From assembly GCA_964428395.1 (NCBI GenBank), contig CAYRYB010000001.1, positions 139,971 to 203,970 on the forward strand: a stretch of 64,000 bases of DNA. Direction: 5' to 3'. The translations under genes were made by a program, and so were the position numbers. The notes below the pieces were generated by a model. The model was not told where the DNA came from, searched no databases, and was given only the letters and a program-made list of their open reading frames with translations. This stretch comes from an uncultured Methanosarcinales archaeon. Lineage in GTDB: Archaea; Nanobdellota; Nanobdellia; Woesearchaeales; SKGA01. Positions 16,880-33,391 of this stretch are shown one piece after another (position 1 is the stretch's first letter; every line of letters begins with the position of its first letter).

Positions 16880-16880
16880 T

Positions 16881-17681
16881 TTATTGCATGCTAATTGGTG
16901 GCCGTGATGATTTAATCATTGAAAGAAACATAAGTTGTACAAATCCTATGAATCCTGCTAGTGCAAGGAGAACACCTAAGCTTAAGGTTAGGCCTATAAA
17001 CGTTGCTAAAACAACAAGCATGGTTGTTCCTAAGGACGGTACGATTACCGCTATCATCATGTAAAACATTGCCAAAGGATTAAGTTTCTTACCATACTCT
17101 TTTACCGAGATTTCTTGTTCTTTGACAATTTGATTAATAACAGAGTTTAATGCTGGCGCAACATCTGAGCCGGTTTTCAATGAGTTAAGAAGTTGCCAGA
17201 GTATTCGTTGTAATGTTGGAGATGGTGAGTTAATAAGTACCTCATTTATTGCATCTTCAATGCTTGTTCCTAAATAAACCTTATTCACTATATCTCCAAA
17301 AAAAGATCCTACAACAGCATAATTTTGCTCAATACTTTCAAATGCTTTATGGATAGGAACTCCTGAGTGTAATTCAATAATTAAGAAACGTCCAGCGAAA
17401 ACTATTTCTTCGTCTATTTTTCTTCGTAGTTGTTCAATTTTTACATCTACATATTTAAGCATGTACAAAAAAGCAAGTGGGGTAATCATTGCTGTAAGAA
17501 GTAAAAGAATATAGATTTTTGGAAAGAATGCAAAAATAACAAAACTAAATGCCGCTGAAAGCATAAACGCTGTCATGAAAATTTTTTTTACGTAAAACTC
17601 TGCGCTTTCGTTAATGGATGCCTGTCGAAGCCTTGCTTCTAAACCAGGGATTTTTTTTGCTAATCGTTTGTAAATTTTCAT
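16881..17681 (-). CDS. type IV pilus membrane platform protein (TadB/FlaJ N-half-like)
   Basis: 266 aa with multiple TM helices. Start/stop abuts 15716..16879. Its position in the pilus operon matches the split TadB/TadC arrangement. Confidence 0.55.
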   Translation of the reverse strand: MKIYKRLAKKIPGLEARLRQASINESAEFYVKKIFMTAFMLSAAFSFVIFAFFPKIYILLLLTAMITPLAFLYMLKYVDVKIEQLRRKIDEEIVFAGRFLIIELHSGVPIHKAFESIEQNYAVVGSFFGDIVNKVYLGTSIEDAINEVLINSPSPTLQRILWQLLNSLKTGSDVAPALNSVINQIVKEQEISVKEYGKKLNPLAMFYMMIAVIVPSLGTTMLVVLATFIGLTLSLGVLLALAGFIGFVQLMFLSMIKSSRPPISMQ

Positions 17682-17692
17682 GGTTCATTCTT

Positions 17693-19687: not shown

Positions 19688-19718
19688 TATACGTCACCCT
19701 CTTTTTACTAAAAAAACT

Positions 19719-20870
19719 TTAATTTCCTCGAATAAAACTGATAAGAGTATTTATTTTTGATGAAAGTTTCTCTTTTCGTTTTTCATACACAGCTAGAGTT
19801 TTTTCTATATCTCCTAATTTATCAGCCACTGCCGGATGGTTGCTAAGAGCATTAAACACTTCTACTTTTTTCTTCAGCAATTCTAATTCTTGTATTAAAT
19901 TATCCTTCTCTGTTTCTATATTTGAGATTAAATCTCCCGTCTTGATTTTTTTAGCAAAAAGATTCTCAAAACCATCGTAGATTTTCTTTCCTAATTCAGC
20001 GTAATTTTGTACCTCTTGAACCTTTATTTTTGCACTTTTTAAGAGCGTGTCTTGTTGTAACTCAACTTCTTCTCGCTTTGAGCCCACTATCTTTGAAAGT
20101 TTTTTAATACTCTCTTTTTTGTTTTCCTTGATATTGCTAGTAATCGTAAGAATATCTTTTTTTATTTTTTTAATACGCTCTTCAGTTCCCGAGATGTTTT
20201 TGATTTGAGAAGTTAATTCCGTTGAAACAGTGCTCAATTTATTTAAGGATTCTTTTATTGTTTTTTCAGCTTCATCTTTACTAAAACGAAGCTTGGCTAC
20301 ATTCGCTTCAAACGTCTTGAGGCGATCCTCTTCTTTTTTTAGATCGTTTAATGATTGTTGGTATGCCTTATCAAAATTTTCTAATTGACTATCATATTCT
20401 TGAATGAATTGCTTGTAGACTCGTTGTTGTTCTTCTATTTCTTTATCGATATTTTTTTTAAGCTCGTCAAAATGTTCAAGTTCTTTCATTTGTTTTCGAA
20501 CAGTTTCTAGTTCATCCTTGATATGCCCTTGAATATTCACAAACTCTTTTCGGACTTCTTCAAAGCCACTCGTTTCACTATCTATTGCATTAATAGTTGC
20601 ATCAATTTTTCGTTTAAAGGCATCTTTTTGAGAATGAGCTTCTTTTGCCGAGATTTTCACGGTGTCCTCATCAATCTTACGTTCCTCAACGTACATTTTA
20701 GAAAACTTATAAGAAAGAGAGACTACTTTTTCCTTTTCTAAAAGTTCTATCCAGTCTTCAACTACATCCTTTGCAACACCAAGCGTTTTTGCTGCTTGTT
20801 CAGAAGTTAGTTTCTTACGATCGTGAATGAGTTGAACAAGCCGGTCAATACCTGTAGTTATATTCTTCAT
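19719..20870 (-). CDS. wHTH + long coiled-coil protein (pilus-operon accessory; fused counterpart of 1437..1892 + 286..1434)
   Basis: The N-terminal wHTH is similar to ORF 1437..1892. About 300 aa of heptad-rich coiled coil follow. It sits first after the pilin genes and before the ATPase. Confidence 0.55.
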   Translation of the reverse strand: MKNITTGIDRLVQLIHDRKKLTSEQAAKTLGVAKDVVEDWIELLEKEKVVSLSYKFSKMYVEERKIDEDTVKISAKEAHSQKDAFKRKIDATINAIDSETSGFEEVRKEFVNIQGHIKDELETVRKQMKELEHFDELKKNIDKEIEEQQRVYKQFIQEYDSQLENFDKAYQQSLNDLKKEEDRLKTFEANVAKLRFSKDEAEKTIKESLNKLSTVSTELTSQIKNISGTEERIKKIKKDILTITSNIKENKKESIKKLSKIVGSKREEVELQQDTLLKSAKIKVQEVQNYAELGKKIYDGFENLFAKKIKTGDLISNIETEKDNLIQELELLKKKVEVFNALSNHPAVADKLGDIEKTLAVYEKRKEKLSSKINTLISFIRGN

Positions 20871-20939
20871 ACCGATTTAAATATGAATTAACAGGTTAAA
20901 AAAGTTGTGTAACCACTCAAAAAAGAAAAAAGAGCCTTT

Positions 20940-21959
20940 TTATGGACAAGCACTTGCATTAGAATAAGATAATCCATCCACTTCGTAGGTGGTTGCTTCG
21001 TTTTGCGGAATAACAAAATAAAGAGATGCAGGCAAACCAGTAACATTACAAAGTTTTACACCTCCTAAATCATTAAAGTAAATAAAATCCACTTTAATCC
21101 TGTTTTCATAGACATCTTTGTCCTGCGCAGCAATATCTCCTATATTTACTATGCTTTGTATACCATAAGGGCTTGGAGTATTATTATTTTCAAAATGTTG
21201 TAAAAAGGAGGGCGCATTTGTTGAAGCAATATAATACGATTTGTTTGCGAGAAGTTGTAAATTGGTTGTATCATTATCGCTTGTATTTACTAAAAAGAGA
21301 AAGGGCGCTTCTCGTACCGTATTTGGAACAGTATTTTCTGTAAATTTACTATACAATGGATCTCGTAAATCAAAAATAGGTACTTGAGTAGTATACGTTT
21401 TTTCAAAATGCCATGATGCAACATGTTTAGTGTCGGAAATATTAACTTTTGTATGAACGGCAACTGTTATCTTCCACGGATCTTCTTGTGAAAGCGTAAT
21501 ATTAAGAACAGTAATATTTGCTCGTAAACCAATTTGACTTGCTAAGAAATTAACACGAGCAAGATAATCTGAAAAACTTGACGCGTTCATTAAAGTTACA
21601 TTAGTTTGGTTAATAGTGCCATTAAAGAATGCTTCCTCAAATGCAGTCGCTGTATTGTTAAAAAACCCTGCAGAGGTTGATGCGATATAATCTTCTAAAG
21701 AAAGCAACGCTCGAAAGGATGAGATATATGTTGCTCGATGTACATCTTGATTAAAGTCGGTTACAAAATCATTCATGAGCTTTACGCGACTTTCGTAAAT
21801 GTCTTGTTTGTCTTGAAAGGTATATCTGTTCGTTGAAAGGAAAACAAATATGATAATAGTTGCAAGGATTGTTGCGGTTACCAAATAGGTGAATCCTTTT
21901 TTGTTAAATTGTTTCATTGTCATGTCCATACTGTTGTACTTACCGTTGTTGGTCCCCAT
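20940..21959 (-). CDS. pilin-like N-glycosylated protein (class III signal peptide; true start probably at internal MTMKQFNKKG|F)
   Basis: KKG|FTYLVTATILATIIIFVFL is a prepilin-like motif. Many N-x-S/T sequons. Ends in Cys. Confidence 0.55.
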   Translation of the reverse strand: MGTNNGKYNSMDMTMKQFNKKGFTYLVTATILATIIIFVFLSTNRYTFQDKQDIYESRVKLMNDFVTDFNQDVHRATYISSFRALLSLEDYIASTSAGFFNNTATAFEEAFFNGTINQTNVTLMNASSFSDYLARVNFLASQIGLRANITVLNITLSQEDPWKITVAVHTKVNISDTKHVASWHFEKTYTTQVPIFDLRDPLYSKFTENTVPNTVREAPFLFLVNTSDNDTTNLQLLANKSYYIASTNAPSFLQHFENNNTPSPYGIQSIVNIGDIAAQDKDVYENRIKVDFIYFNDLGGVKLCNVTGLPASLYFVIPQNEATTYEVDGLSYSNASACP

Positions 21960-24649
21960 AAATAAGGTACGCCATTTATCAATGTTATCGTGATTTCTAA
22001 ATCTGCTTCTGTTAAATCCACGATGACCTTGCCATTTTTATCAGGGTCTAATTGTTCAAGCAAGTGGTACGTTGCAGAGTCATAGGCATCATCGCTATTA
22101 TAAACAATACTCGTGTTTGTATAGTTACATTGTTTGCTTCCAGAATAACTTGTTGGGATAAGTAAATGTGAGAAAAGCTCTGATTCTGATTGTATGGTCC
22201 AATTACAACCATCATGATACGTAAAAGTTTGACTTCGTGGTGTTGATGAATTAATTAATGCAGTGTAAATAAGTGTGTTATTGGGTGAACAAATTGAATT
22301 GTTAAGTGGCGAGTCCCCTACCTTCATAACAATTGTATTATCTGTTCCAGGAACCAATGTCGTTGAAGGTATTTGTATAAGAAAAGGATCTCCTAGTAAA
22401 ACATAATCATTGCCATAATCACTTAAATTAAAAACAACCACATTATTAACGGTTACTAACTTTGTCCAATGCTTAGAAGAAAATGATGTAACATAAGCAT
22501 TAGTTATTTCTATTCCCTCAGGCAGAGGAATAGTTGCGCTGCAACCACCAAATTGAGCAGACTCAAATGTTAAGGATATTTTTCCTTGTTTATCTACTTG
22601 TGTTAATGGTTCATAGTATAAATCAATGTATGAATTATTATACAGGTGCGCTAGGGAGTAATTACCAACAATATTAAGTGTTTGCGAAGAATAATTTGCT
22701 ACAACGAGTATTTGTTCAGAAATATTCTTGTATATTTGTGCAAGCTGTGAAACATTGGTTGCATTATAGTAAAGCGAGGAATTACAAGCAATTTGTTGCA
22801 TGACTGATTGTCCTGAAGCAGTCATTCCTTCACTAAATCCTATTGCATAAACAGTAATGTTATCTGCGCATGCTTGCTGCGCTGCAGCTATTGCATCGTT
22901 TTGTGATTGCGTTCCATCATTGCCAACAGAAGAATATGTGTGTAAATCACCTCCACAATGTCGCGTTGGTTCACCATCACTTAAAACAACCATAAATTTT
23001 TTGTTCGTTGAACTATTTATCGAATCTCTAGCCCTATTAATTCCACAACAGGTGCATGTTCCGCCTCCTGCAGAATAAGTGTCAATCTCTGAATCTAAAA
23101 CTCCTTTTACATTGGTTAATGCTGTTTGAGGATTTGCGTTTGTTGAAAAATCTACAAGACCAATTTTGTGAAGAAGCGAGTCATTAAGAATAGTTTCTAC
23201 AAAAAGATGATCTGCTTCTTTTGCAATGTCTAAGAGTGTTTTATTACAGGTTGTAGTTGTTTTGTTATAGATAACATGATTTTTTGTTGTTGAAGTTCCG
23301 CCACATTCATTAGAAACGCAAGTTGTTGTATAAGGGCATTCTGTTGAAAACCACCATACCCACCACTTATATTCATATTTGCAGTATTCCACATCATGCG
23401 TGTAATATTCTCCACAATCATTCATACTTCCTGAAACGTCCGTTACGAGAAATGAATCTGATGGTTTGCCTGCGTTAACAACAGTAATGTTTGAAAGATT
23501 GGTCGTTCCTAAGCGCAATGGTATTTCTGTTGGTGGAAGAGTTTGATTTATTCTTGAATAAAGAATATTTTGCGTGATATTTTGTCCTGGAGAAATAAAA
23601 ATAGTTTCATTAGCTAAAGTTACAAACGTATCATATTCATTATACAACGTCAAATTCATAGTCCAATTGCGTATTAGTCCTTGCGCGCCAAAGGCATCAT
23701 ACATGTTTAAGAATCCATCAATTTGTGGGAAGAAATATCTTCTGTAACCAGGTGTTACAGGATCATTTACTGTGTCCGTTGTATACACCACTTTAAGAAA
23801 TCCTCCTGAAATATACGATTCATTTAAATCGCTAGTAAACGCTAAAGTAATATTATTTTTTCCTGCTTGAAAAGAAGTATTGCAAGATATAATGTTCCAT
23901 AAATTTATTTGTCCTACTTGTCCCGTTCTTGGTCCTCCACAAGGATTTTCATTAATATAGAATTGAAATGTTCCTGGTGTTTCTATTTTAAGGTCTGTTG
24001 ATAAAAGTCGTGAAGTAGAAAAATCAGCTGGTAGCGTTAAAGATACCGTGATATTTCCCTGTCCGTAAAATCCTCCAAAATAAGCATAGGCATTTGTTTT
24101 TTTATTGCGTACTTTTTTAAGATAGGCCGAAGAACTTGAACCAGTAATAGGTGCACCTTTTGCAATTCCAGATATCATTCGTCTTGTTATAACCAAATTT
24201 TGTATTGGTGAATCATTTCGTTGAAAGATAGAATCGTTCTCAATTGAAAATTTAATATTCAAATTTGGTGGAAGTGAGGCATTGGTTATTATTTCAAAGA
24301 GTTCTTTTGCTTTGGCAGTTTTATTTAATGCCCAATATTCACCAATTTGTTCTAAAACGGTATTGTTGACATTTGTTATGTTGCCCGTTGTTATCTCACT
24401 AGTTACAAAAGAACTATTCATTTCATTGATTGTTATCGCTCCTAAAACATTAAGAAGATCTTGCGTGATAAACGATTTCTCATTTATTGATGGCTCATAA
24501 TAGGTAACAGAAAGTAATGTTGCTGCAACACCAACTAATAAAAGTCCTGCTAAAAGCGCGTCCATTGAGTAATAAATTCCTTTTTTCTTTATCATTTTAC
24601 TCCCATGAATAAACAATAAGCTGTAATAATGATGCGTTGTAGGCAACAA
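21920..24649 (-). CDS. large pilin-like adhesin with vWA domain (class III signal peptide; true start probably MIKKKG|I at about 24595)
   Basis: KKKG|IYYSMDALLAGLLLVGVAATLL is a prepilin motif. The MIDAS motif LVTDVSGSMND is present, with downstream vWA-like T and D positions. About 60 N-glycosylation sequons and Cys-rich segments. Confidence 0.7.
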   Translation of the reverse strand: MLPTTHHYYSLLFIHGSKMIKKKGIYYSMDALLAGLLLVGVAATLLSVTYYEPSINEKSFITQDLLNVLGAITINEMNSSFVTSEITTGNITNVNNTVLEQIGEYWALNKTAKAKELFEIITNASLPPNLNIKFSIENDSIFQRNDSPIQNLVITRRMISGIAKGAPITGSSSSAYLKKVRNKKTNAYAYFGGFYGQGNITVSLTLPADFSTSRLLSTDLKIETPGTFQFYINENPCGGPRTGQVGQINLWNIISCNTSFQAGKNNITLAFTSDLNESYISGGFLKVVYTTDTVNDPVTPGYRRYFFPQIDGFLNMYDAFGAQGLIRNWTMNLTLYNEYDTFVTLANETIFISPGQNITQNILYSRINQTLPPTEIPLRLGTTNLSNITVVNAGKPSDSFLVTDVSGSMNDCGEYYTHDVEYCKYEYKWWVWWFSTECPYTTTCVSNECGGTSTTKNHVIYNKTTTTCNKTLLDIAKEADHLFVETILNDSLLHKIGLVDFSTNANPQTALTNVKGVLDSEIDTYSAGGGTCTCCGINRARDSINSSTNKKFMVVLSDGEPTRHCGGDLHTYSSVGNDGTQSQNDAIAAAQQACADNITVYAIGFSEGMTASGQSVMQQIACNSSLYYNATNVSQLAQIYKNISEQILVVANYSSQTLNIVGNYSLAHLYNNSYIDLYYEPLTQVDKQGKISLTFESAQFGGCSATIPLPEGIEITNAYVTSFSSKHWTKLVTVNNVVVFNLSDYGNDYVLLGDPFLIQIPSTTLVPGTDNTIVMKVGDSPLNNSICSPNNTLIYTALINSSTPRSQTFTYHDGCNWTIQSESELFSHLLIPTSYSGSKQCNYTNTSIVYNSDDAYDSATYHLLEQLDPDKNGKVIVDLTEADLEITITLINGVPYLWGPTTVSTTVWT

Positions 24650-25097
24650 GACGTTGTGTTGTTACTAAATGTTTATAGGTAATTGAGGATAAATCTGGTT
24701 CACAAGTAAGCGCATCATATGCTAAAGGATATCCATGTAAACAGTTTGTAAGATTGATGATTTGCGTGTTATTTTTAAAAAAGAAAATATATTCATTGGT
24801 TACATGATACAATGTTTTTGTATGATTATAATCAAGAGCATCAAATTGTGTTAATTTAGTCAGGTTAAGACGATAATCATCAGTAATTCCTGGAAGTAAT
24901 ACTGTTGTTACACTCCAATTATTTGGATAACCATCCAAAACAAGTTGATCAGAAATATAAACATTATTTCTGTAAAGCTCTGTGTATGCTCCTGCAGGTA
25001 GAATATCTATAATTATTTTTATTGCAAGAAGTAAAAGAAAGATAAAACCAACGAGGCCTAAAATAAAATCAACGGTAAACATTTGTGCTTTGCTCAT
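24597..25097 (-). CDS. minor pilin (class III signal peptide)
   Basis: N-terminus MSKAQ|MFTVDFILGLVGFIFLLLLAI. Confidence 0.6.
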   Translation of the reverse strand: MSKAQMFTVDFILGLVGFIFLLLLAIKIIIDILPAGAYTELYRNNVYISDQLVLDGYPNNWSVTTVLLPGITDDYRLNLTKLTQFDALDYNHTKTLYHVTNEYIFFFKNNTQIINLTNCLHGYPLAYDALTCEPDLSSITYKHLVTTQRLVAYNASLLQLIVYSWE

Positions 25098-25118
25098 TTT
25101 TATTCTCTTTAGTAAGGT

Positions 25119-25514
25119 TTAGTTTAGTTGTAAAACTCCATTTTGCTTTCGCAAAACATTTGTTCCTTTTATCATGCTTCCATTAATAACAGGAATAACA
25201 TAAAATAATTCTTGATGTGAAAAAAGAATACTCATATATCCATTGCTTGCACTTGTATTGCCAATAACGATAGTATAATTCATATCATTTATTTTTTCAG
25301 GAACGCTAAAGAATCGCTCATAGCCATCCTGTACTTGCGTTCCTAAGAGGAGCTCTTGTTGCAAGCTTTTTCCCAAGTCATTTAGTTGTTCGTACGTGTT
25401 CTGTGTTGTTTTATCCGCTGAAAGGGTGAGCGCTGCCCCTATAACTATGAAAAGGAAAAAAAATCCTGTTATTCCTAAAAGAATAAATTCTATAGATACT
25501 TGTGCTCGTTTCAT
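25119..25514 (-). CDS. pilin (class III signal peptide)
   Basis: N-terminus MKRAQ|VSIEFILLGITGFFFLFIVIGAA. Confidence 0.65.
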   Translation of the reverse strand: MKRAQVSIEFILLGITGFFFLFIVIGAALTLSADKTTQNTYEQLNDLGKSLQQELLLGTQVQDGYERFFSVPEKINDMNYTIVIGNTSASNGYMSILFSHQELFYVIPVINGSMIKGTNVLRKQNGVLQLN

Positions 25515-25516
25515 TT

Positions 25517-25957
25517 TTATGTGTCCGTAAGAAGAACATCGTCAGCTTGTGCTTTTATCACAATAAAATGAGGTCCTTCGAATTTTTTTAATGATCCACT
25601 AAGATTAATAGCAGTCTCTTTAATATAGTCATAATTATACGTTGCCGAAGTCATGTTAAAAATAAGTTCGTTTGACTGCACACTAACGGATTGTATACCT
25701 GAAGGAAATGTTATTCGAACAGTTTTTTGTGCTGGTGGGCCCATAAAATAAACTTCTTGAGCTGCATCAGTAATGAGTGTTGCTGCTCTGTCTAATTGTG
25801 CGTTGGCGATGTCTGATTGTAAATTACTTGTTTGTGTTGTGAAAATGATGATTAAAGGTAACGTCATAAAAAAAGCCACTGAGAAAATGATTAAGTATTC
25901 CATGGCCACTTGACCTTTACACATCCTTTTCATAAAGATAATTGACGCTGAAGGCAT
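25517..25957 (-). CDS. pilin (class III signal peptide; start probably the internal MKRMCKGQ|V)
   Basis: KGQ|VAMEYLIIFSVAFFMTLPLIIIF. Only a 2-nt gap to the downstream pilin gene. Confidence 0.6.
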   Translation of the reverse strand: MPSASIIFMKRMCKGQVAMEYLIIFSVAFFMTLPLIIIFTTQTSNLQSDIANAQLDRAATLITDAAQEVYFMGPPAQKTVRITFPSGIQSVSVQSNELIFNMTSATYNYDYIKETAINLSGSLKKFEGPHFIVIKAQADDVLLTDT

Positions 25958-26043
25958 ATTTAAAGATGATGTCTTTATCGACTAGTTAAAACAAGAAAAA
26001 AAAGTGAATCCTAATGAGATGCAAGAGAAGAAGCAAAGAGAAA

Positions 26044-26072
26044 GAAATAAAGAAAAAAAAGAAAAAAAATAT
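26044..26072 (-). terminator. oligo-T tract (minus strand) immediately after the major pilin stop codon
   Basis: Plus-strand agaaaaaaaagaaaaaaaat equals T-runs on the coding strand 5-30 nt after the TAA at 26077-26079. Archaeal intrinsic terminators are oligo-T runs. Confidence 0.35.
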
Positions 26073-26076
26073 TTAT

Positions 26077-26595
26077 TTACGCGTATTTACCATCTACACT
26101 TCCCGTGTGGGTGATCGTTTGCGTTGTTTCAACATTTGTATAATCCACAGTCAATTCCGCTTTAAATTTATCACCAACAGTAGGGTTTAGACTTGATGGG
26201 TCACAATCCCATTTTAAAAGGAAGGTTCCTCCGTTTGGAATTTGTGTTGTGTCTGCAACAATTGGTGCACCAGAATATGTTCCTGTAATAACAGGGTTAT
26301 TACATTCTACTCCGGTTGCAGGTGAAACATTTCCTGTTAAAGGCAAGGTAATTGCCACACCTTTGTTATTTTTAAATGCTATTTCAATAGAATTGTCAGC
26401 AAGGCTAACTACTGCGTTATCTAAGTTTGCGATTGGTGCAGTGAACGTTGTTCGCTCTGGCAAGAGTTTTTGGGGGCTTAATACACCAAAATATGCCAAT
26501 GCTCCGATTGCCAAAAGTACAACCAAAATTGCCCAACCATACGTCATTAAGAACTCCATGGCCGCTTGTGCTCGTTTTCTCATCATTAAAAACAC
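26077..26595 (-). CDS. probable major pilin (class III signal peptide; likely true start at ATG 26586 rather than the GTG at 26595)
   Basis: N-terminus (M)MRKRAQ|AAMEFLMTYGWAILVVLLAIGALAYFG. The SD-like gaggtg lies 9 nt upstream of the ATG. It is the first gene of the locus, with its own TATA and an oligo-T terminator. Confidence 0.7.
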   Translation of the reverse strand: MFLMMRKRAQAAMEFLMTYGWAILVVLLAIGALAYFGVLSPQKLLPERTTFTAPIANLDNAVVSLADNSIEIAFKNNKGVAITLPLTGNVSPATGVECNNPVITGTYSGAPIVADTTQIPNGGTFLLKWDCDPSSLNPTVGDKFKAELTVDYTNVETTQTITHTGSVDGKYA

Positions 26596-27367: not shown

Positions 27368-27597
27368 TTTTTTCTTTTATTTTTCTTTGTCAAGAGCGTT
27401 TTTTCCAAAGAAGAAAACATAAGAGCAACACGCAAACAAGCAAGGACAGTTGCACTAAAGAGAAAGTCCAAGAAAACAATCTAGCGGTAGCTTAAACACT
27501 TCTTAGCGTTTAATGCAAATAACTTTTTAGGCAGAGCCAGAACTGACAAACATTTATAAATGACTTCTCGTTCTTCAAACATACAGCAAGTTCTCAT

Positions 27598-27672
27598 AGC
27601 GGGATGGAGCAGCCAGGAGTGCTCGCAGGGCTCATAACCCTGAGGTCGGAGGTTCAAATCCTCTTCCCGCTA
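27598..27672 (+). tRNA. initiator tRNA-Met (anticodon CAU), archaeal type
   Basis: Acceptor AGCGGGA/TCCCGCT with A1:U72, the archaeal initiator hallmark. GGG/CCC triple in the anticodon stem. Loop CTCATAA. 75 nt, no encoded CCA. An upstream TATA-like atttataaa lies at about 27552-27560. Confidence 0.85.
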
Positions 27673-27700
27673 TTTCTTTTCAATTCTTCATCAGAAATAT

Positions 27701-27925
27701 TCACATCGAAAACTGGTTCGATTCCTTTCTCAACAAGAAGTGCATTGCTTCTTTAAGTTTTCGCCCGAGGTCGTTGTTTTCTTGCATAATCTTGTCGTGT
27801 CTTGTTTTGATTATCACTTCTAACTCTTCGCCTTTGACAGTAAGTCTAGAGCTAATAAGTGGTGCAGGCACAACAATTGAATGGGAATTTCCCACTTTCA
27901 TCAGTTTTGCAGTGAATTTTACCAT
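27701..27925 (-). CDS. AbrB/SpoVT (swapped-hairpin) family small DNA-binding protein (antitoxin-like)
   Basis: N-terminus MVKFTAKLMKVGNSHSIVVPAPL matches the K-VGNS-x-x-V/I-P signature of the AbrB/MazE/VapB family. Confidence 0.55.
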   Translation of the reverse strand: MVKFTAKLMKVGNSHSIVVPAPLISSRLTVKGEELEVIIKTRHDKIMQENNDLGRKLKEAMHFLLRKESNQFSM

Positions 27926-28004
27926 GTAGCTTTTCCTCCGTTGTTTAAACAGATTGTTATAATGGAAATCACTTAAAATATGAGAATGTTACGCTAAATG
28001 TTAC

Positions 28005-28214
28005 ATGGAAGAGTTATTACCATTATTTCGAAGCAAATTAAAGGTTGCAATACTGGAAAGTCTCAAAGAAGATACTATGAGTCCTATTATGCTTGCAAAG
28101 AAACTAAAGAAACCACGTTCAAGCATTAGTAGAATCATCTTAGAATTGGAAGAATTAGGCTGGGTGAACACGAAGAGTGGTGAGAAAGTTCTAAAAAAGT
28201 TTATAGTTCAGTAA
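28005..28214 (+). CDS. small winged-helix (ArsR-like) transcriptional regulator
   Basis: 69 aa. LAKKLKKPRSSISRIILELEELGWVN is an HTH recognition helix followed by a wing. Confidence 0.5.
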   Translation: MEELLPLFRSKLKVAILESLKEDTMSPIMLAKKLKKPRSSISRIILELEELGWVNTKSGEKVLKKFIVQ

Positions 28215-28219
28215 CATCA

Positions 28220-29176
28220 CTATTTTAATTCTATTTTTGTCAGAATTTGATCAAAAATTGCAGAATATTTCTTAATATTCTCTCGCATTTTTTTGCAATT
28301 CTCAAAATTAAATTCAAAAGATCCATAGAATATTTTCCCACTATCATCAATAGTTTCAGACTTATGAGCCAATTCATTTCGAGGTGTTATTATTTCTGTA
28401 CAATATGATTCAAAACTAAATGGTGTAGTTAAACCGATTTTGTTTATTACAGTTTCAACCGCTTCACCTTTTTTATGAGTTCCAAAAATAAATTCATCAA
28501 TGAAACTGTTAAATGAACTCCCGGAATATTCTTTTTTCTCTTGTACTAGATCTTTTACGTATAAATTCAAATATTTTTTTAAATCTTTTAGTTTATTAAA
28601 AGACCAATCTACTGTCTTGGTTATTACTTCCTCAATAAAAAAATCAGGAGTCACTAATTCTTTTTCAATAGAGCGACGTAAGATTTTTTTCTTTTTATCA
28701 TCAAGATCAGACACTTCCGCCATAACCAATCCTCGCAAATTTTCAGGATCTTGAATTTTTTTTATAGTACTTAAAAATATTTGTTTAAACTTTTCTAAAA
28801 AGAAATGATCATCACGCTCAGAACAATAAACTCCATCAATTTGTCTTTCACTTATAAGTTTTCTAAGTTTTTCCTCATCAGTTTCTTGATTAGAATAAAA
28901 AAGAACATCGGTATAATGATTACCATCTCGGATGTCTTTTATTATATCAGCACCAGATTCATAATATCCTAAGTCAAAGTCCATTAAAATGATATTATAA
29001 TCACTATATGTTCCATGATCCTCATTAAATTCACTTTTCGTCGAGATTTTTATTATATCTGCATCATTCTCACAGATAAACCCTTCCAATTGAACAATTT
29101 TTACAACTTCTTCACTTAACTCTTCAACCCAGTCTGGATCATCATCAAACCACAGAATTCTATACCTTAACTTCAT
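28220..29176 (-). CDS. response-regulator receiver (REC) domain protein with C-terminal effector-like domain bearing an Rx4H (HEPN-like) motif
   Basis: REC signatures: beta1 RILWFDDDPD (acidic pair) and beta3 IILMDFDLG (phospho-acceptor Asp). The ~200-aa C-terminal domain contains ...ITPRNELAHK (R-N-x3-H). Its stop overlaps the start of the GHKL/HK gene. Confidence 0.6.
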   Translation of the reverse strand: MKLRYRILWFDDDPDWVEELSEEVVKIVQLEGFICENDADIIKISTKSEFNEDHGTYSDYNIILMDFDLGYYESGADIIKDIRDGNHYTDVLFYSNQETDEEKLRKLISERQIDGVYCSERDDHFFLEKFKQIFLSTIKKIQDPENLRGLVMAEVSDLDDKKKKILRRSIEKELVTPDFFIEEVITKTVDWSFNKLKDLKKYLNLYVKDLVQEKKEYSGSSFNSFIDEFIFGTHKKGEAVETVINKIGLTTPFSFESYCTEIITPRNELAHKSETIDDSGKIFYGSFEFNFENCKKMRENIKKYSAIFDQILTKIELK

Positions 29177-31692
29177 TCTTTTATCTCCATCAATAATTTA
29201 ATTCCTTTCTTTTCGCTTGAAACCGTTAACTTACCATTAAGATCTTTGACAATATTTTTTGAATCATATAATCCAAGACCTGATCCTCCTGTTGTAGATA
29301 TTCCTTGTTCAAATATTGTTGCTGGGTTTTTACTAAATCTTTTGGGCAAACCATCACCATCATCTTTTATTTCAACAATTAATGAAGAACCTTTTTTAGT
29401 AAATGAAAAGAATATTTTTTTAGCGTTCATCTTTCGAGCATTATCTAATATACAGTCAACCATGTATGCAATCTCGAACGGTTTAATACGTTTTTTGAAG
29501 GAAAATTCTTCATCTTGAATTGTATATATTTTTAATGTTGAGAGCTTATTCTTATGAATATTCTGCAAATACTGTTTGAAAAAATCCACTAAATTTACTT
29601 TTTTTCCATTAAGTTCTTCCGTTAATCCTCCTTGAATTGCAATATTCGCTATTGTAAATATTTGTTTATTAACTCGATTTAATTTCTTTGCTTTCTCTAT
29701 CACTCCGCCAGTTTCTGATTCTTTCAAAATTTTCTTTGTTAATAATTCAACTGTTTGAGATTTTGTTTTAATATAATGATAATATCGAACAAGTTGTTCC
29801 TTGCTCTGGTCTTGTATCGATTTCAAAAAAATGTTCTGAGTTTCTAATTCTTCTTTTTCTTCTTTACTTTTCTTCGCTTCTTCTTCGGCTTTTTTTGCTT
29901 TTGATTCCGCTTTCTTTTTCTCTTCTTCAGCTTTTTTACTTTTTTGTTCAGCTTGTTTAGCTTTCGATTCTGCTTTTTTTCTTTTTTCTTCTTCCCCTTT
30001 TGCCTTTCTAGTTAATAAAGCAATCGACTTTTTTATATTCGACATTCCTTTTGAAGTATTTGTATCAAGTTTTATGCCCTCATTTTCTATCTTGGAGATG
30101 AAGTTATTAATTTTTTCATGTTGCTCTTTTGCTAAACCTTTCATTAAGTCAGTATCTATTGTTAAATTAAGAATATCATTCTTATTAGATGTTATGAGAA
30201 TAACTTTACTGAGCTGAGATAATATTGTTAGTTCTCGTTCGGTTTGATCTCCTTTAAGAGATTCTCTTCTAGGGTCATAATCAAATATTCCTGCCTCAAC
30301 ACCTTTCAAATAAGGATCGTTTTTATCTTTGACTTTATCCCAATCAATAACATCAGAAACAAAGAGTTCTAACTTTCTTAAAACATAATAAAAAAATGAT
30401 TTTGTAAAATCAGTTCTACCAATTGCAGTTAATTGATCATACGATGGGTTTTTAACTAATCCTTCCCTATTTGAGACAATCGTAAATAGCTCATTCTTTG
30501 GATCAGTTATTTCTATTCTACCAATACAGTCTCGAGTTCCTAGATACCTTCTTTGACCTTGAGTTTTACGTATATCAAGACCTAGCCAATCATTTCCGAA
30601 ATCTCCAAATGGACTTAATCTAAAACCATTAATAAAAAGAAATATGGATCCAAATTCAACAGACCTATATCCCATCTGACGTTTAAAATATGCTTTGGCA
30701 TATTGGTTTAAGTAAGTTAAGTGTACTCTAATATTTTTTAATAAAGAAAACTTGTTCTTTTCTTTAAGATGAAAAACAACTCGATTCCTATCTTTTAGTG
30801 TTGTAGTTATATATTTTCCATCTTTAGAAATTTCACAAGTGATTTCTGAAACCCTAAATGCTAACGAATCAAATATTTTATTTTCTACAAGAGTTCTATT
30901 CAGATAATTGTATTCTTCAACATCATCTTTATCAGTTAAATCATAATCTTCTTTGCTCAGATCTTCAACACATAACGATATTTTAAATGAATTTTTTTGT
31001 ATACTTTGATTCGGATTAATTAACTTTTCCAAGTTTTTTTTTAAATCAATTAAAGGAGTATAATAATATTCATCTTGCGATAATTCAATCCATTCTCTTC
31101 TTAATCGACTAATCTCAAGTATTGTTCCTGCACTTTCAATTGTATACCCAATCTTTTTCTTTAATTCAGTTGGTGTTAACGAATCCATTAACTTGATTCC
31201 TACTTTTTGTATAACATCATTAACAGAATTCTTATTCTCGAAATCATTCCAGTTAATTTGCAAATGCCATATTTTTGAATCTTTTTTAGATTTAGTATAA
31301 AGATCTAAATACTCACCAAGCCGATCACAAGAAAATCTGCCTACTCCTTTCGCCCCTGCTTGTACTCGTCCAAACTTTTCTCTATCTTCTCTTTTTGAAG
31401 AATAAGCAATGTTAAGCCATTTTTCTTCAATGTCCTTTAAAGACATCCCTTCTCCTGAATCAACAATTAATATTTTAGAGGATGAATCAATTAGTTCATC
31501 CCTTACAGTCGAATTTGTATCAAAATTAATGTTCTTTTTCAGATTTCGAAAATGTATTTTTACTAATTTAGAACCAGCATCAAATGAATTTTTAATTAAT
31601 TCTTGAATAGCTACAAAATCATCGTTAATTAAATCCTGTCCAAGAACATTTTTTAAGTGTGCATTTGTTTTAAAGTGTAAAGTTTTAACCAT
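29173..31692 (-). CDS. 839-aa protein: N-terminal MORC/MutL-type GHKL ATPase + charged coiled-coil + C-terminal histidine-kinase module (putative HisKA_2-like H-box + HATPase_c)
   Basis: N-terminus ELIKNSFDAG (Bergerat N-box), VDSGEGM (G1) and GAKGVGRFS (G2). Middle KAKGEEEKRKKAESKAKQAEQKSKKAEEEKKKAESKAKK. C-terminus YYHYIKTKSQTVELL (putative phospho-His region), ILDNARK (N-box), DDGDGLP (G1) and GGSGLGL (G2). Confidence 0.7.
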   Translation of the reverse strand: MVKTLHFKTNAHLKNVLGQDLINDDFVAIQELIKNSFDAGSKLVKIHFRNLKKNINFDTNSTVRDELIDSSSKILIVDSGEGMSLKDIEEKWLNIAYSSKREDREKFGRVQAGAKGVGRFSCDRLGEYLDLYTKSKKDSKIWHLQINWNDFENKNSVNDVIQKVGIKLMDSLTPTELKKKIGYTIESAGTILEISRLRREWIELSQDEYYYTPLIDLKKNLEKLINPNQSIQKNSFKISLCVEDLSKEDYDLTDKDDVEEYNYLNRTLVENKIFDSLAFRVSEITCEISKDGKYITTTLKDRNRVVFHLKEKNKFSLLKNIRVHLTYLNQYAKAYFKRQMGYRSVEFGSIFLFINGFRLSPFGDFGNDWLGLDIRKTQGQRRYLGTRDCIGRIEITDPKNELFTIVSNREGLVKNPSYDQLTAIGRTDFTKSFFYYVLRKLELFVSDVIDWDKVKDKNDPYLKGVEAGIFDYDPRRESLKGDQTERELTILSQLSKVILITSNKNDILNLTIDTDLMKGLAKEQHEKINNFISKIENEGIKLDTNTSKGMSNIKKSIALLTRKAKGEEEKRKKAESKAKQAEQKSKKAEEEKKKAESKAKKAEEEAKKSKEEKEELETQNIFLKSIQDQSKEQLVRYYHYIKTKSQTVELLTKKILKESETGGVIEKAKKLNRVNKQIFTIANIAIQGGLTEELNGKKVNLVDFFKQYLQNIHKNKLSTLKIYTIQDEEFSFKKRIKPFEIAYMVDCILDNARKMNAKKIFFSFTKKGSSLIVEIKDDGDGLPKRFSKNPATIFEQGISTTGGSGLGLYDSKNIVKDLNGKLTVSSEKKGIKLLMEIKE

Positions 31693-32992
31693 TTAGACTC
31701 GCCTTTGAACAACAATTACAGTTTAGCTCTGTATTATTACTTTGAGTTATATTAGTAACTTCTCCCTTAATAGATGAGGGCGAGCTTCTTTTTAAATATT
31801 CTTTCAAAACAATGCCTAAAATCTCTCCAAATAGCGGAGGTATAGCATTTCCAATTTGAGTATACCTTGGCACTTCTAATTTTCTGTTTTTTCCACCCGT
31901 AGTGTATTTTCCCTTGAATTCAAAAGTATCGGGGAATGACTGAATTCTTGCATATTCTCGAACAGTTAAAATTCGAGGTTCTTCATAATGAATATAATCA
32001 TCAGGTAGAGTTGTTAAAGTTGGAGATGTCCCATTAGAATCTAAAGGAATTATGCAATGTTTCTTTAGATTAAACTTCTTCTTTAACTCGTCAGAAACAT
32101 TTGTATTTCTATTTGCCTTGCTTAATATGTATCTAAATCGTTTTATTGTTTCAGTTGAATGATTTGGAAAACGATGACTATCAGGATTTGAAGATCGAGA
32201 TAAACCTTTTTTCATCAATGATTGATATGAAGAATTTTTTTTACCATAGAGTCCTGCTTTGAATCGAGGATTGTCTGGAGAATTAATCAACCCATTAGAC
32301 TGAAACAAGTCTCCTATTGCATCCTTTACAGTTGTTTTGCGAGTAATAGGCAAACCTTTCTGCTTTAGAAATTCTTTCTTATATTGATAAATATTCTCAA
32401 ATATGTCTTGGGCTTTACCTTTTTTAGTTCCAATTATAATACATCTTTCCCTTCTTTGTGGTACGCCAAAATCAGAGAAATTTATGATTTTCCAATCAAC
32501 ATCATATCCAAACTCTTTCAATTTGTTAGTGACAATTTCAGAATAAGCAATTCCTCGAGAATTATTTTTTGTTTTAAATCCTATAGTGAACCCCTTAACA
32601 TTTTCAAAAACAATTACTTGAGGTTGTACTAATTCTACAAAAGTTAAATATAATCTCAGAAGAAGATTCCTAGTGTCAGACTCATTTCTACGACCTGCCA
32701 TTGAAAACCCTTGACATGGTGGTCCCCCCACCAGTAAAGTTACGTTTCCTCTTAACGAACGTAATTGATCTGATTTTTCATCTATTAATTCATTAATATC
32801 ATGATTTGACTTTTCCAACCAAGGCACCCATTTAAAGTGCTTTGTCTTATCAATTAAATTAAATTTTAATGTCTCGAAAGCTAAAGAATCTTTTTCAATT
32901 GCAAATAGTCCCTTCCAATTAGCATTATGAAGTCCTAATGAAATGCCTCCACAGCCTGCAAAAATATCTATATAGTTGAAACTAGACTTCAT
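31685..32992 (-). CDS. DNA (cytosine-5)-methyltransferase (Dcm family)
   Basis: Motif I IDIFAGCGGISLGL. Motif IV GGPPCQGFSMAG. Motif VI ENVKGF. Motif X QIGNAIPP. The start of the downstream GHKL/HK gene overlaps by 8 nt. Confidence 0.9.
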   Translation of the reverse strand: MKSSFNYIDIFAGCGGISLGLHNANWKGLFAIEKDSLAFETLKFNLIDKTKHFKWVPWLEKSNHDINELIDEKSDQLRSLRGNVTLLVGGPPCQGFSMAGRRNESDTRNLLLRLYLTFVELVQPQVIVFENVKGFTIGFKTKNNSRGIAYSEIVTNKLKEFGYDVDWKIINFSDFGVPQRRERCIIIGTKKGKAQDIFENIYQYKKEFLKQKGLPITRKTTVKDAIGDLFQSNGLINSPDNPRFKAGLYGKKNSSYQSLMKKGLSRSSNPDSHRFPNHSTETIKRFRYILSKANRNTNVSDELKKKFNLKKHCIIPLDSNGTSPTLTTLPDDYIHYEEPRILTVREYARIQSFPDTFEFKGKYTTGGKNRKLEVPRYTQIGNAIPPLFGEILGIVLKEYLKRSSPSSIKGEVTNITQSNNTELNCNCCSKASLNG

Positions 32993-33046
32993 GTTAACAC
33001 TTTAGACGAACCTGGTTATAAACTTTTCGTTTATAAATGGGTATTA

Positions 33047-33391
33047 TTAAGGATCTGTTTGAGATGTTTTTTTATAAGCATATACCCATGAAGCATCATT
33101 ATCTCCACCACCAGTGCCACCATCTGTTCCAATAGTTTCAATAAAATATTTTTCAATTTCACGTGCTTCTGTAGAGTTCATAGCTTCCCTGAAAGCATAC
33201 CATGCATTTTCTTTTTGTACTTTATGATCTCCAAAGAGTCTTTGCTCGATATTTTGCGTTATTCCTACATACCAACTAGATTTAGCTCCACCTTCCTTGT
33301 TGATATGAGCTAGTATTTCTTGTTTAATTTGTTCTTTTTCTTTTTTCATTTTAAACACTAGTAATAGATTGGTTAAGATATATTTAAACAC
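33047..33391 (-). CDS. small GIY-YIG superfamily (YhbQ/UPF0213-like) putative nuclease
   Basis: 114 aa. SWYVGITQNIEQRLFGDH matches the second half of the GIY-YIG signature (Y-x-G-x-T-x-N/D-x-x-x-R-x-x-x-H), with a downstream Glu. Confidence 0.45.
   Translation of the reverse strand: MFKYILTNLLLVFKMKKEKEQIKQEILAHINKEGGAKSSWYVGITQNIEQRLFGDHKVQKENAWYAFREAMNSTEAREIEKYFIETIGTDGGTGGGDNDASWVYAYKKTSQTDP

Follow-up and report, generated by a model that had tools for sequence, protein, structure and literature searches.

A conserved three-gene cassette encoding a Dcm-type cytosine methylase, a GHKL ATPase-histidine kinase hybrid and a receiver protein with a predicted HEPN domain

Organisation of the locus

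The window, a stretch of DNA of 64,000 nucleotides, contains three minus-strand genes that overlap one another and are preceded by a promoter-like element. These features are as follows.

33016..33022, minus strand: TATA-like TTTATAA, a putative archaeal promoter ~27 nt upstream of the gene 1 ATG, read by eye
31685..32992, minus strand: gene 1, Dcm-type C5 cytosine DNA methyltransferase, 435 aa, first of the operon
29173..31692, minus strand: gene 2, soluble hybrid protein of 839 aa, comprising a GHKL ATPase, a conserved middle domain, a K/E-rich linker, a DHp helix and a histidine-kinase (HK) catalytic domain
28220..29176, minus strand: gene 3, receiver protein of 318 aa with a HEPN-like C-terminus

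The ORF coordinates give an overlap of 8 nt between genes 1 and 2 and of 4 nt between genes 2 and 3. A preliminary description of this DNA had proposed an operon of three overlapping genes, all three reading frames were found where it had placed them, and the operon organisation is upheld. The TTTATAA element may serve as the promoter of gene 1, in which case a leaderless transcript would be expected.

A tRNA-Met lies 550 bp past gene 3. A search for an integration scar revealed no att-like direct repeat. An adjacent GIY-YIG ORF, a 289-aa ORF, HTH genes and an AbrB-like ORF were considered as further members of the cassette and rejected, having no counterpart in 73 related loci.

Domain composition of the encoded proteins

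Gene 1 matched Pfam DNA_methylase (PF00145; E 4.9e-60, 204 bits, cut-off 22) and TIGR00675 dcm (E 1.1e-49, 169.9 bits, cut-off 100.65), in both cases above the curated cut-off, and also the PADLOC model MTase_II (6.5e-86). Inspection of the translation reveals motifs I (FxGxG), IV (PCQ), VI (ENV) and X (GNAxPP), all of which are kept in 49 orthologues. The initial assignment of this protein as a Dcm-type C5-methyltransferase is confirmed by these matches and motifs. Gene 1 is the best conserved of the three cassette genes, with a median identity of 53% to its orthologues. Under-representation of the palindromes GATC, CATG and AGCT in the window was considered as a trace of the methylase and set aside, as it is not attributable to that enzyme.

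Four features were delineated in gene 2.

31183..31614, minus strand: GHKL (HATPase_c_3) ATPase domain, aa 27-170, with Glu31, Asn35, Asp78 and the Gly-rich lid intact
30328..31095, minus strand: conserved middle domain, aa 200-455, delimited by conservation in 172 sequences
29776..29778, minus strand: codon of His639, the predicted phospho-accepting His of the DHp helix, invariant in 172/172 homologues
29200..29469, minus strand: HK catalytic (CA, HATPase_c) domain, aa 742-831, with N, G1 and G2 boxes

The N-terminal domain matched Pfam HATPase_c_3 with an E-value of 6.4e-19 (68.8 bits, cut-off 25). The motifs ELIKNSFDAG, DSGEGM and GAKGVGRFS that had been picked out in the preliminary description are real, and their residues (E31/N35/D38, D78/G80/G82 and G113/K115/G116/G118) are conserved across 172 homologues. 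That the domain is a GHKL ATPase with its catalytic residues in place was upheld, but the epithet "MORC-like" is loose: its nearest relatives by sequence were the Hsp90/HtpG and MutL N-domains, found in the PDB by profile at ~1e-7, and the BbrUII/HgiDII restriction-enzyme family of NCBIfam (NF050001; 9.2e-11). The middle domain, which gave no match in Pfam or, when a profile of aa 135-464 was used, among PDB sequences, carries many invariant basic residues (K333, R358, R375, R387 and R409) and an NGFRxxPxG motif in the 172 sequences; an S5/transducer fold, S5 being the domain by which MORC/paraMORC proteins are defined, is suspected for it. No methylation-reading domain was identified in the cassette.

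At the C-terminal end of gene 2, the HK catalytic domain matched Pfam HATPase_c (E 5.9e-15, 56 bits, cut-off 26.4) and histidine kinases in the PDB (1e-3). The N, G1 and G2 boxes are as first described, the residues N751, G779 and G803/G805/G807 being at least 98% conserved in 172 homologues. In the same homologues the H-box consists of His639 followed by H/Q/D/N-I-G. The segment YYHYIKTKSQ, earlier put forward as a HisKA_2-type phospho-His region, does contain this invariant His, but the family label was overstated, as none of the DHp families HisKA, HisKA_2, HisKA_3, HWE_HK, His_kinase and HEF_HK in Pfam was matched at E<=0.1. The precomputed domains of 120 gene 2 homologues were PF02518, PF13589 and PF14501 only, and the architecture with two HATPase domains is common to more than 3181 homologues.

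Gene 3 was divided into two domains, listed here with a site in each.

28754..29176, minus strand: receiver (REC) domain, aa 1-141, with (beta-alpha)5 topology in the AF2 model, supported by Foldseek
28979-28981, minus strand: codon of Asp66, the predicted phospho-acceptor, invariant in homologues
28223..28753, minus strand: HEPN-like domain, aa 142-318, with the invariant first-helix motif NLRGLVMAE and RNELAH
28364-28381, minus strand: RNELAH, aa 266-271, an Rx4H motif

The receiver had been called canonical. It is a genuine receiver but a divergent one. Gene 3 scored below the cut-off of Pfam Response_reg (PF00072; E 0.0059, 17.2 bits, cut-off 30.2), while its homologues reached 1.8e-10, and Response_reg was matched in 50/50 close and 51/64 more distant homologues. 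As a single sequence against the PDB, gene 3 gave only a marginal match to the CtrA receiver; the top Foldseek matches of its AF2 model (pLDDT 85) in the PDB were all receivers, with a probability of 1.0 and TM ~0.65-0.7. Alignment of homologues revealed an acidic DDD at aa 11-13, following beta1, in addition to the invariant Asp66, which lies where beta3 ends. The usual Lys after beta5 is replaced by an invariant Arg (R121), and the alpha2 region is irregular.

The remainder of gene 3 is predicted to be an RNA-cutting HEPN domain, on the basis of its sequence and of a modelled all-alpha, HEPN-like helical bundle. The preliminary description had read R-N-E-L-A-H as a HEPN Rx4-6H motif, and the fit holds: no variation occurs at R266, L269, A270 and H271 among 48-50 homologues, and in a further 64 more distant homologues R266 and H271 are invariant and the N is at least 90% conserved. 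It had also allowed for an ordinary DNA-binding output; none was found, and the domain is not of a DNA-binding kind. Gene 3 itself matched no Pfam HEPN family, a profile of its C-terminal domain found zero matches among PDB sequences, and Foldseek of the modelled domain against the PDB returned nothing significant, with Csx1 ranked second at E 1.1. Weak Pfam HEPN matches were obtained in 12/114 homologues scanned, among them HEPN_RiboL-PSP in 4/64 (best 1e-5), Swt1 in two members of each set (2/64 and 2/50) and single matches to MAE_28990, Abi_2 and Apea. The output domain, whose profile gathers 740 clusters at 50% identity, essentially never occurs without a receiver.

Alternatively, the C-terminal domain could be a helical bundle without catalytic activity, binding a ligand or partner, with the true effector elsewhere or absent. 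This is considered improbable, as R148 and the two defining residues of Rx4H, Arg and His, do not vary in more than 110 sequences at 20-40% identity, and HEPN families are the sole functionally coherent set among the Pfam matches that recur for the output domain.

Linkage, genomic context and proposed mode of action

The order methylase, kinase, receiver-HEPN protein, with the methylase directly upstream of the kinase, was found in 52/52 independent genome loci whose upstream sequence was long enough, and in every metagenome locus that was inspected. With the same order in every one of the 52, the arrangement is far beyond chance, and the neighbourhood, whose wider conservation the preliminary description had yet to establish, is strongly conserved outside the source genome in both bacteria and archaea. 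The three-gene module is present in the genomes of at least 57 other bacterial and archaeal species. The 52 loci come from 8 or more phyla of the two domains, and include those of Bacteroidota, Campylobacterota, Acidobacteriota, Patescibacteria, Methanosarcina and Aenigmatarchaeota. Hosts of the family include Bacteroidales of the human gut and rumen as well as archaea, and a sister variant is carried on Campylobacter plasmids. Among the neighbours are AAA_21/RloB, Dcm+AAA_5, integrases and a prophage, and defence genes are often present. A scan of viral contigs yielded only three distant copies.

The cassette is probably an immunity or addiction system. To the observed domain identities, invariant catalytic residues and obligate linkage of the three genes can be added a model of the trigger, the direction of signalling, the RNase activity and the biological outcome, all of which we infer. 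It describes a horizontally mobile conflict module resembling restriction-modification (R-M), with a HEPN RNase turned on by phosphotransfer and self protected by methylation, and its chance of being correct is put at about even. The Dcm methylase would modify host DNA at a specific cytosine context. The 839-aa protein would act as a cytoplasmic sensor whose GHKL ATPase and conserved basic middle domain probably engage DNA in the manner of MutL, paraMORC and GHKL-type restriction enzymes. In response to its trigger, most likely DNA without the cognate methylation, the sensor would autophosphorylate on His639 and the phosphoryl group would pass to Asp66 of the receiver protein. Phosphorylation of the receiver, probably via dimerisation, would assemble the composite Rx4H active site of the HEPN domain, and the activated domain would then cut RNA and bring about cell arrest or death. 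The outcome may be abortive infection or, upon loss of the methylase, post-segregational killing.

Several observations argue for the conflict-module reading. They include the obligate, ordered linkage, the start/stop overlaps in the window, the mobile and defence contexts of the loci, and the invariance of His639 and, in all receivers, of Asp66, with both GHKL ATP-binding boxes intact. The invariant RNxLAH, the HEPN-like predicted fold and the weak Pfam HEPN matches count in the same direction, as do the likeness of the N-terminal GHKL domain to the BbrUII/HgiDII family and the lack of either a DNA-binding output or a DNase in the cassette; Pfam, NCBIfam and PADLOC revealed no nuclease-fold DNase in either gene 2 or gene 3, leaving HEPN as the sole nuclease-like domain. 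Counting against it are the failure to identify a methylation-reading domain, a fold for the middle domain or a Pfam HEPN match for gene 3 itself, the Arg at the conserved Lys position and irregular alpha2 of the receiver, the mere three distant copies on viral contigs, and a possible role of the cassette in its own maintenance rather than in host defence.

The last of these points leads to a different view of the cassette, as a selfish addiction module that plays no part in antiviral defence, a mobile genetic parasite whose HEPN toxin would be restrained only while the methylase modifies the genome, such that losing the element would be lethal to the cell. The strict linkage of the methylase to the kinase and receiver-HEPN protein in all 52 loci would be expected of such a parasite, as would the residence of cassettes on integrative elements, plasmids and a prophage, and many R-M systems behave in this way (discussed in PMC8011034). 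Some copies, however, lie in defence islands beside other immune genes, and pure addiction is regarded as unlikely. Addiction and the conflict module are inseparable by sequence alone because their molecular mechanism is identical.

Extra Dcm or R-M genes lie downstream of the cassette in 12/57 loci and on a Rhizobium plasmid. Such neighbours favour a reading of the cassette as a regulatory two-component system that tunes R-M or the level of methylation, for example with HEPN degrading specific mRNAs in response to intracellular nucleotide or DNA status, and a regulatory role was speculated on by Bellieny-Rabelo et al. (PMC8011034). The probability of this is judged to be low: the receiver lacks a DNA-binding output, the window and most loci contain no separate restriction enzyme to control, and the distribution of HEPN, HNH and other effectors across sister clades fits effector swapping instead.

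Vsr was found near the cassette in 14/57 loci. Given the resemblance of the GHKL N-domain to MutL, and the assistance that MutL gives to Vsr repair in E. coli (PMC2292703), the hybrid protein might be an accessory that works with Dcm and Vsr in very-short-patch T:G repair, the kinase and receiver being signalling add-ons. The window and the majority of loci nevertheless lack Vsr, a mobile cassette of patchy distribution does not suit a housekeeping function, and the invariant kinase His, receiver Asp and RNxLAH are left unexplained, so that a repair function appears very improbable.

For the conflict module, sister systems provide a further argument. A Deinococcus relative combines an N6 methylase and kinase with REC and HNH, and the Campylobacter plasmid system keeps the kinase with a non-HEPN output. 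Retention of the kinase while methylase type and effector are swapped is the pattern expected of a modular sensor-effector immune system. It is possible, and is proposed tentatively, that a widespread class of immunity exists in which a MutL/Hsp90-like GHKL ATPase reads the modification status of incoming or resident DNA and signals through a His-Asp phosphorelay to a HEPN RNase.

If the proposed logic is correct, an R-M system with a two-component "restriction" arm ending in RNA cleavage would exist in both bacteria and archaea, a small low-GC archaeon among them. It would link epigenetic self-marking by a methylase with two-component phosphotransfer, paradigms that are normally separate, and a receiver domain would directly gate a HEPN ribonuclease. 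The family is large (740 output-domain clusters and more than 3000 kinase homologues) and would, though uncatalogued, commonly contribute to the dynamics of phages, plasmids and hosts. A function would also be assigned to a paraMORC-like GHKL module, with a bearing on chromatin-state reading by eukaryotic MORCs. The current labels of the cassette genes, "sensor histidine kinase" and "response regulator", imply ordinary gene regulation.

Comparison with known systems

Among catalogued defence systems, PADLOC offers no model of either the kinase or the receiver protein; gene 2 matched none of its defence models, including any for Detocs that it may contain, and a match of gene 3 to PDC-M41A (E 0.0063) was rejected as chance-level. 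No experimental study of the cassette or of any relative was found in the literature. Detocs, a defensive two-component system (Rousset et al. 2023), is reported to consist of a kinase (DtcA), a buffer receiver (DtcB) and a receiver-effector (DtcC). In both systems a cytoplasmic histidine kinase is paired with a receiver fused to a toxic effector rather than to a DNA-binding domain, a role that remains predicted for the HEPN domain, and effectors are swapped among relatives. Unlike Detocs, the cassette has no gene for a buffer receiver alone, its methylase is obligatory, its sensor is a GHKL ATPase module, and its effector would be HEPN in place of a nucleoside phosphorylase. It also differs from classical type II R-M, as its methylase has no paired DNA endonuclease.

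MORC and paraMORC GHKL ATPases have been described in restriction-modification operons (Iyer, Abhiman & Aravind 2008, PMC2292703). Like paraMORC and BbrUII/HgiDII (NF050001) proteins, gene 2 has an intact N-terminal HATPase_c_3 GHKL domain and belongs to a family found beside cytosine methylases and Vsr in mobile islands. The paraMORC1-5 groups, by contrast, have DNases, TIR domains or helicases as fusion partners or linked genes, a histidine-kinase core being described for none of them (PMC2292703), and by sequence the gene 2 N-domain is nearer to Hsp90 and MutL than to MORC in the PDB.

HEPN RNases serve as effectors of abortive-infection and toxin systems, among them HepT/MNT, the AbiA C-domain, HepS, ApeA, RiboL-PSP and Swt1 (Anantharaman et al. 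2013, PMC3710099). Gene 3 is set apart from these by fusion to a phospho-accepting receiver and by its distinctive invariant first-helix NLRGLVMAE. A receiver-HEPN fusion is mentioned neither in the 2013 HEPN survey (PMC3710099) nor in any paper found.

The closest precedent corrects the preliminary description, in which no known system was thought to join these genes: the architecture was already reported computationally by Bellieny-Rabelo, Pretorius & Moleleki (2021, Genome Biol Evol; PMC8011034), who found, in 628 bacterial strains, kinases of the HATPase_c_3–DHp–HATPase_c type that are linked to a C5 methylase and accompanied by receiver-like proteins. Linkage was 91.6% in 644 regions, Vsr was frequent, and the kinases were tied to paraMORCs, from which an ancestry was proposed (PMC8011034). 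The cassette shares with this HEF_HK/Response_reg_2 system a soluble kinase made up of HATPase_c_3, a DHp with a core His and HATPase_c, as well as an adjoining receiver-like partner of ~300 aa, a C5 methylase upstream and an R-M/mobile context (PMC8011034). It departs from it in the H-box, which is H-[HQDN]-I-G in the cassette kinases and H-E/D-F in HEF_HK, and in the Arg at the conserved Lys position of the receiver (PMC8011034). The 2021 survey covered bacteria only, gave no domain to the C-terminal half of the receiver and proposed R-M regulation rather than an RNase effector (PMC8011034).

The Pfam families for the kinase (PF19191) and receiver (PF19192) did not match the window proteins, neither PF19191 nor PF19192 was matched by any of 114 receiver homologues, the kinase family does not match PF19191, and neither model scored above cut-off in seven related kinase loci tested. 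Relatives from Campylobacter, Ensifer, Acinetobacter, Rhizobium, Hymenobacter and Deinococcus, scanned for these published families, gave a single weak match to PF19191 (0.0023), in A. baumannii. As judged from its sequences, the cassette is a variant of the kind described in 2021, belonging to a clade that is set apart by its non-match to the PF19191 and PF19192 models.

Layout of the cassette and its surroundings

Three minus-strand ORFs were found in the window exactly where the preliminary description had placed a candidate novel defence operon, with gene 1 overlapping gene 2 by 8 nt and gene 2 overlapping gene 3 by 4 nt. A TATA-like element (TTTATAA) was spotted by eye ∼27 nt 5′ of the first ATG, that of gene 1, and a small GIY-YIG-like ORF located 54 bp upstream of the methylase gene on the same strand had a counterpart in none of 73 related loci. 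Given the overlaps, the TATA-like element and the absence of this ORF elsewhere, the cassette looks like a self-contained three-gene operon.

Features of the window
3819-7403, plus strand: family B DNA polymerase, intein-bearing, 1194 aa
10196-12100, minus strand: aCPSF1 beta-CASP ribonuclease (equivalog match, E 1.7e-250)
15716-26595, minus strand: archaeal type IV pilus-like cluster
27597-27673, plus strand: tRNA-Met
27701-27925, minus strand: 74-aa ORF
28005-28214, plus strand: 69-aa winged-helix protein
28220-29176, minus strand: gene 3, 318-aa ORF, receiver with predicted HEPN domain
29173-31692, minus strand: gene 2, 839-aa ORF, double-ATPase kinase
31685-32992, minus strand: gene 1, 435-aa ORF, Dcm methylase
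33047-33391, minus strand: small GIY-YIG-like ORF (Pfam, 2e-5)
42009-43871, plus strand: XPD/Rad3 helicase

The cassette region (28000-33000) is slightly AT-richer than its surroundings (GC 0.29-0.30 versus ∼0.34), which, together with the proximity of tRNA-Met 550 bp past the cassette end, suggests an acquired island; neither an att-like repeat nor an integrase was detected there. Two small ORFs between tRNA-Met and the cassette may form a small regulator or antitoxin-like pair: the 74-aa ORF carries an AbrB/SpoVT-like motif (KVGNSHSIVVP) recognized by eye and has no Pfam match, and the 69-aa protein has an IclR-type HTH (HVO_A0261_N, 5.7e-8).

The window is of archaeal origin, as shown by its aCPSF1 equivalog, XPD/Rad3 helicase and intein-bearing family B polymerase, and has a GC content of ∼33%. 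Its polymerase ORF contains an intein N-terminal splicing region at aa 557-647, with the polymerase match falling in two stretches. In the pilus-like cluster, T2SSF and a T2SSE/PilB-like ATPase are accompanied by a VWA-domain protein of 909 aa and by several small ORFs whose N-termini resemble class III signal peptides. Tetranucleotide palindromes are scarce across the whole window (observed/expected 0.59 for GATC, 0.73 for CATG and 0.76 for AGCT), a depletion not attributable to the gene 1 methylase.

Domain composition of the three proteins

Matches to Pfam DNA_methylase (4.9e-60), TIGR00675 (1.1e-49) and PADLOC MTase_II (6.5e-86) confirmed gene 1 as an unambiguous Dcm-type C5 methyltransferase.

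The pairing of a GHKL (Bergerat-type) ATPase with a histidine-kinase catalytic (CA) domain in gene 2 was likewise borne out by Pfam, with HATPase_c_3 at aa 27-170 (6.4e-19) and HATPase_c at aa 742-831 (5.9e-15). Across an alignment of 172 homologues, the residues that bind ATP in either domain vary little or not at all, and a single histidine, His639, located in the helix just before the CA domain, does not vary; the catalytic and phospho-accepting residues are intact. The "HisKA_2-type" label proposed for the phospho-His segment is unverified, since the H-box, H-[HQDN]-I-G, matches no Pfam family of phospho-His helix (DHp) regions. "MORC-like" is similarly a loose description of the N-terminal GHKL domain, whose nearest relatives by sequence are the BbrUII/HgiDII restriction-enzyme family (9.2e-11) and, with a family profile, the N-domains of Hsp90/HtpG and MutL (∼1e-7). 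Strong conservation extends over residues 200-455, a domain with many invariant Arg/Lys residues and no detectable relatives of known structure, followed by a poorly conserved K/E-rich linker (aa 456-625).

The N-terminal 140 residues of gene 3, previously termed a canonical receiver, are a real but divergent one. The window protein falls under the Pfam cut-off (Response_reg, E 0.0059), but Response_reg was matched in 50 of 50 close and 51 of 64 distant homologues. The AlphaFold model (pLDDT 85) has (beta-alpha)5 topology, and every Foldseek match in the PDB was a receiver domain (probability 1.0). Asp66 is invariant, as is an Arg that occupies the place of the canonical Lys.

The C-terminal 180 residues of gene 3 contain two invariant motifs, NLRGLVMAE in the first helix and R-N-x-L-A-H. 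Modelled separately (pLDDT 87, pTM 0.81), this domain is all-alpha and has a small hairpin following the helix that bears RNELAH; Foldseek returned no significant structural match for the model. A minority of homologues weakly matched Pfam HEPN families, namely RiboL-PSP (four proteins, best 1e-5), Swt1 (also four) and, with a single match apiece, MAE_28990, Abi_2 and Apea. Matches to DUF1033 (four members) and to SprA_N, DUF4948 and Peptidase_S10 (two each) were recurring but chance-like, and these aside the HEPN families are the sole functionally coherent Pfam set on the domain. The invariant Rx4H motif and the weak family matches argue that the domain is very probably a HEPN, as had been proposed; a non-catalytic C-domain is given small weight. 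A profile of the domain searched against 1.84 billion representatives recovered 740 clusters, the best 150 of which were almost all ∼300-aa proteins with the domain at residues 130-305, indicating that it is essentially always receiver-fused.

Conservation of the triad and its sister systems

In a scan limited to one genome per species, 57 loci were recovered from Bacteroidota (many gut/rumen lineages), Campylobacterota, Acidobacteriota, Aminicenantes, Ignavibacteria, Fibrobacter, Treponemataceae and Patescibacteria, and, among archaea, from two Methanosarcinaceae and one Aenigmatarchaeote. A Dcm orthologue immediately upstream of the kinase, with receiver-HEPN next in order, was present in all 52 loci with enough upstream DNA, so that the neighbourhood is conserved well beyond this genome and the three-gene linkage is obligate. 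Median identity to the window was highest for the methylase (53%), followed by the kinase (34%) and the receiver (31%), and Vsr lay within 7 kb in 14 of the 57 loci. Further loci, retrieved from metagenomes and genomes through identical-protein look-up, carried the same triad, in one case within a defence island that also contains AAA_21/RloB and a second Dcm accompanied by AAA_5, and in others flanked by integrase, inside a prophage-like region or beside Vsr. Only three viral-contig copies were seen, all distant. In 12 of the 57 loci (L015, L017, L021, L023 and L034 among them), the receiver-HEPN gene is followed immediately by one or two further genes for C5 methylases, giving multi-methylase islands in genomes of Bacteroidales and Treponemataceae.

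A tblastn search against plasmids yielded sister kinases, and the six matches annotated share the architecture of gene 2 but have different partners. Campylobacter pTet-type conjugative plasmids (C. jejuni p15597A-2, L069, and 42 others) encode the kinase, a 340-aa receiver protein with a non-HEPN output domain lacking RNxxxH, and a convergent dcm. On Deinococcus gobiensis plasmid P2 (L077, NC_017791.1 397838-402805), an Eco57I-like N6 methylase precedes a HATPase_c_3/HATPase_c kinase, a 215-aa receiver and an HNH endonuclease; evidently the same kinase scaffold is able to serve a DNase arm as well. A Rhizobium locus combines the kinase with a 438-aa protein, dcm, vsr and a type II restriction enzyme, and a Hymenobacter locus combines it with two proteins of no assigned family and an N6 methylase. 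Ensifer adhaerens pC (L070) and Acinetobacter baumannii NZ_CP064203.1 (L071) encode, after the kinase, a protein of 646-680 aa that matches no Pfam family and, in place of a methylase, a convergently oriented PAPS reductase, which hints at a variant tied to a different, perhaps sulfur-based, DNA modification. A sensor kinase that stays constant while methylase type and effector are exchanged is the pattern expected of a modular conflict system and disfavours ordinary transcriptional regulation; a regulatory role retains small weight, as does a role in repair.

Proposed mechanism and relation to described systems

We infer the following chain for what triggers the cassette, for its RNase activity and for its role in the cell, the most economical reading being an R-M-like module. 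The methylase would mark self DNA, and the GHKL and basic middle domains of the kinase would engage DNA and respond to the unmarked state or to another invader cue. Phosphotransfer from His639 to Asp66 would activate the receiver, which, typically dimerising, could pair two HEPN domains into a composite Rx4H RNase site, leading to growth arrest, abortive infection, or post-segregational killing upon methylase loss. The chain as a whole has about an even chance of being correct, and most of the remaining probability falls to a close relative of it, a pure addiction module.

The preliminary description is confirmed in what it observed and upheld in part in how it read the cassette. It knew of no comparable system, but a C5-methylase-linked kinase and receiver had been reported by Bellieny-Rabelo, Pretorius and Moleleki (2021, PMC8011034). 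In that study, which was computational and confined to bacteria, receiver-like Response_reg_2 (PF19192) proteins adjoined kinases that combine HATPase_c_3, HEF_HK (PF19191) and HATPase_c, at a linkage of 91.6% (644 regions, 628 strains); a C5 methylase was dominant upstream and Vsr frequent downstream. The kinases were argued to derive from paraMORCs, no known domain beyond the receiver was found in the receiver protein, and the pair was speculated to regulate R-M systems. Neither PF19191 nor PF19192 matched the window proteins, 114 receiver homologues or most related kinases, although PF19191, present in the Pfam library searched, weakly matched one A. baumannii relative. The window clade therefore lies outside these models, and its H-box also differs.

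No kinase-fused family is described in the 2008 paraMORC paper (PMC2292703), the 2013 HEPN survey (PMC3710099) does not mention a receiver-HEPN fusion in such a context, and full-text literature searches returned nothing on REC-HEPN and no report of a cassette of this kind being tested experimentally. Neither the kinase nor the receiver protein is covered by a PADLOC model, leaving the cassette uncatalogued there. Taken as a whole, the cassette represents a divergent version, in an archaeon, of a theme known beforehand from computational work, to which the present analysis adds the assignment, predicted with high confidence, of HEPN as the receiver output domain, the reach of the system into archaea, and the exchange of methylase and effector between sister clades.
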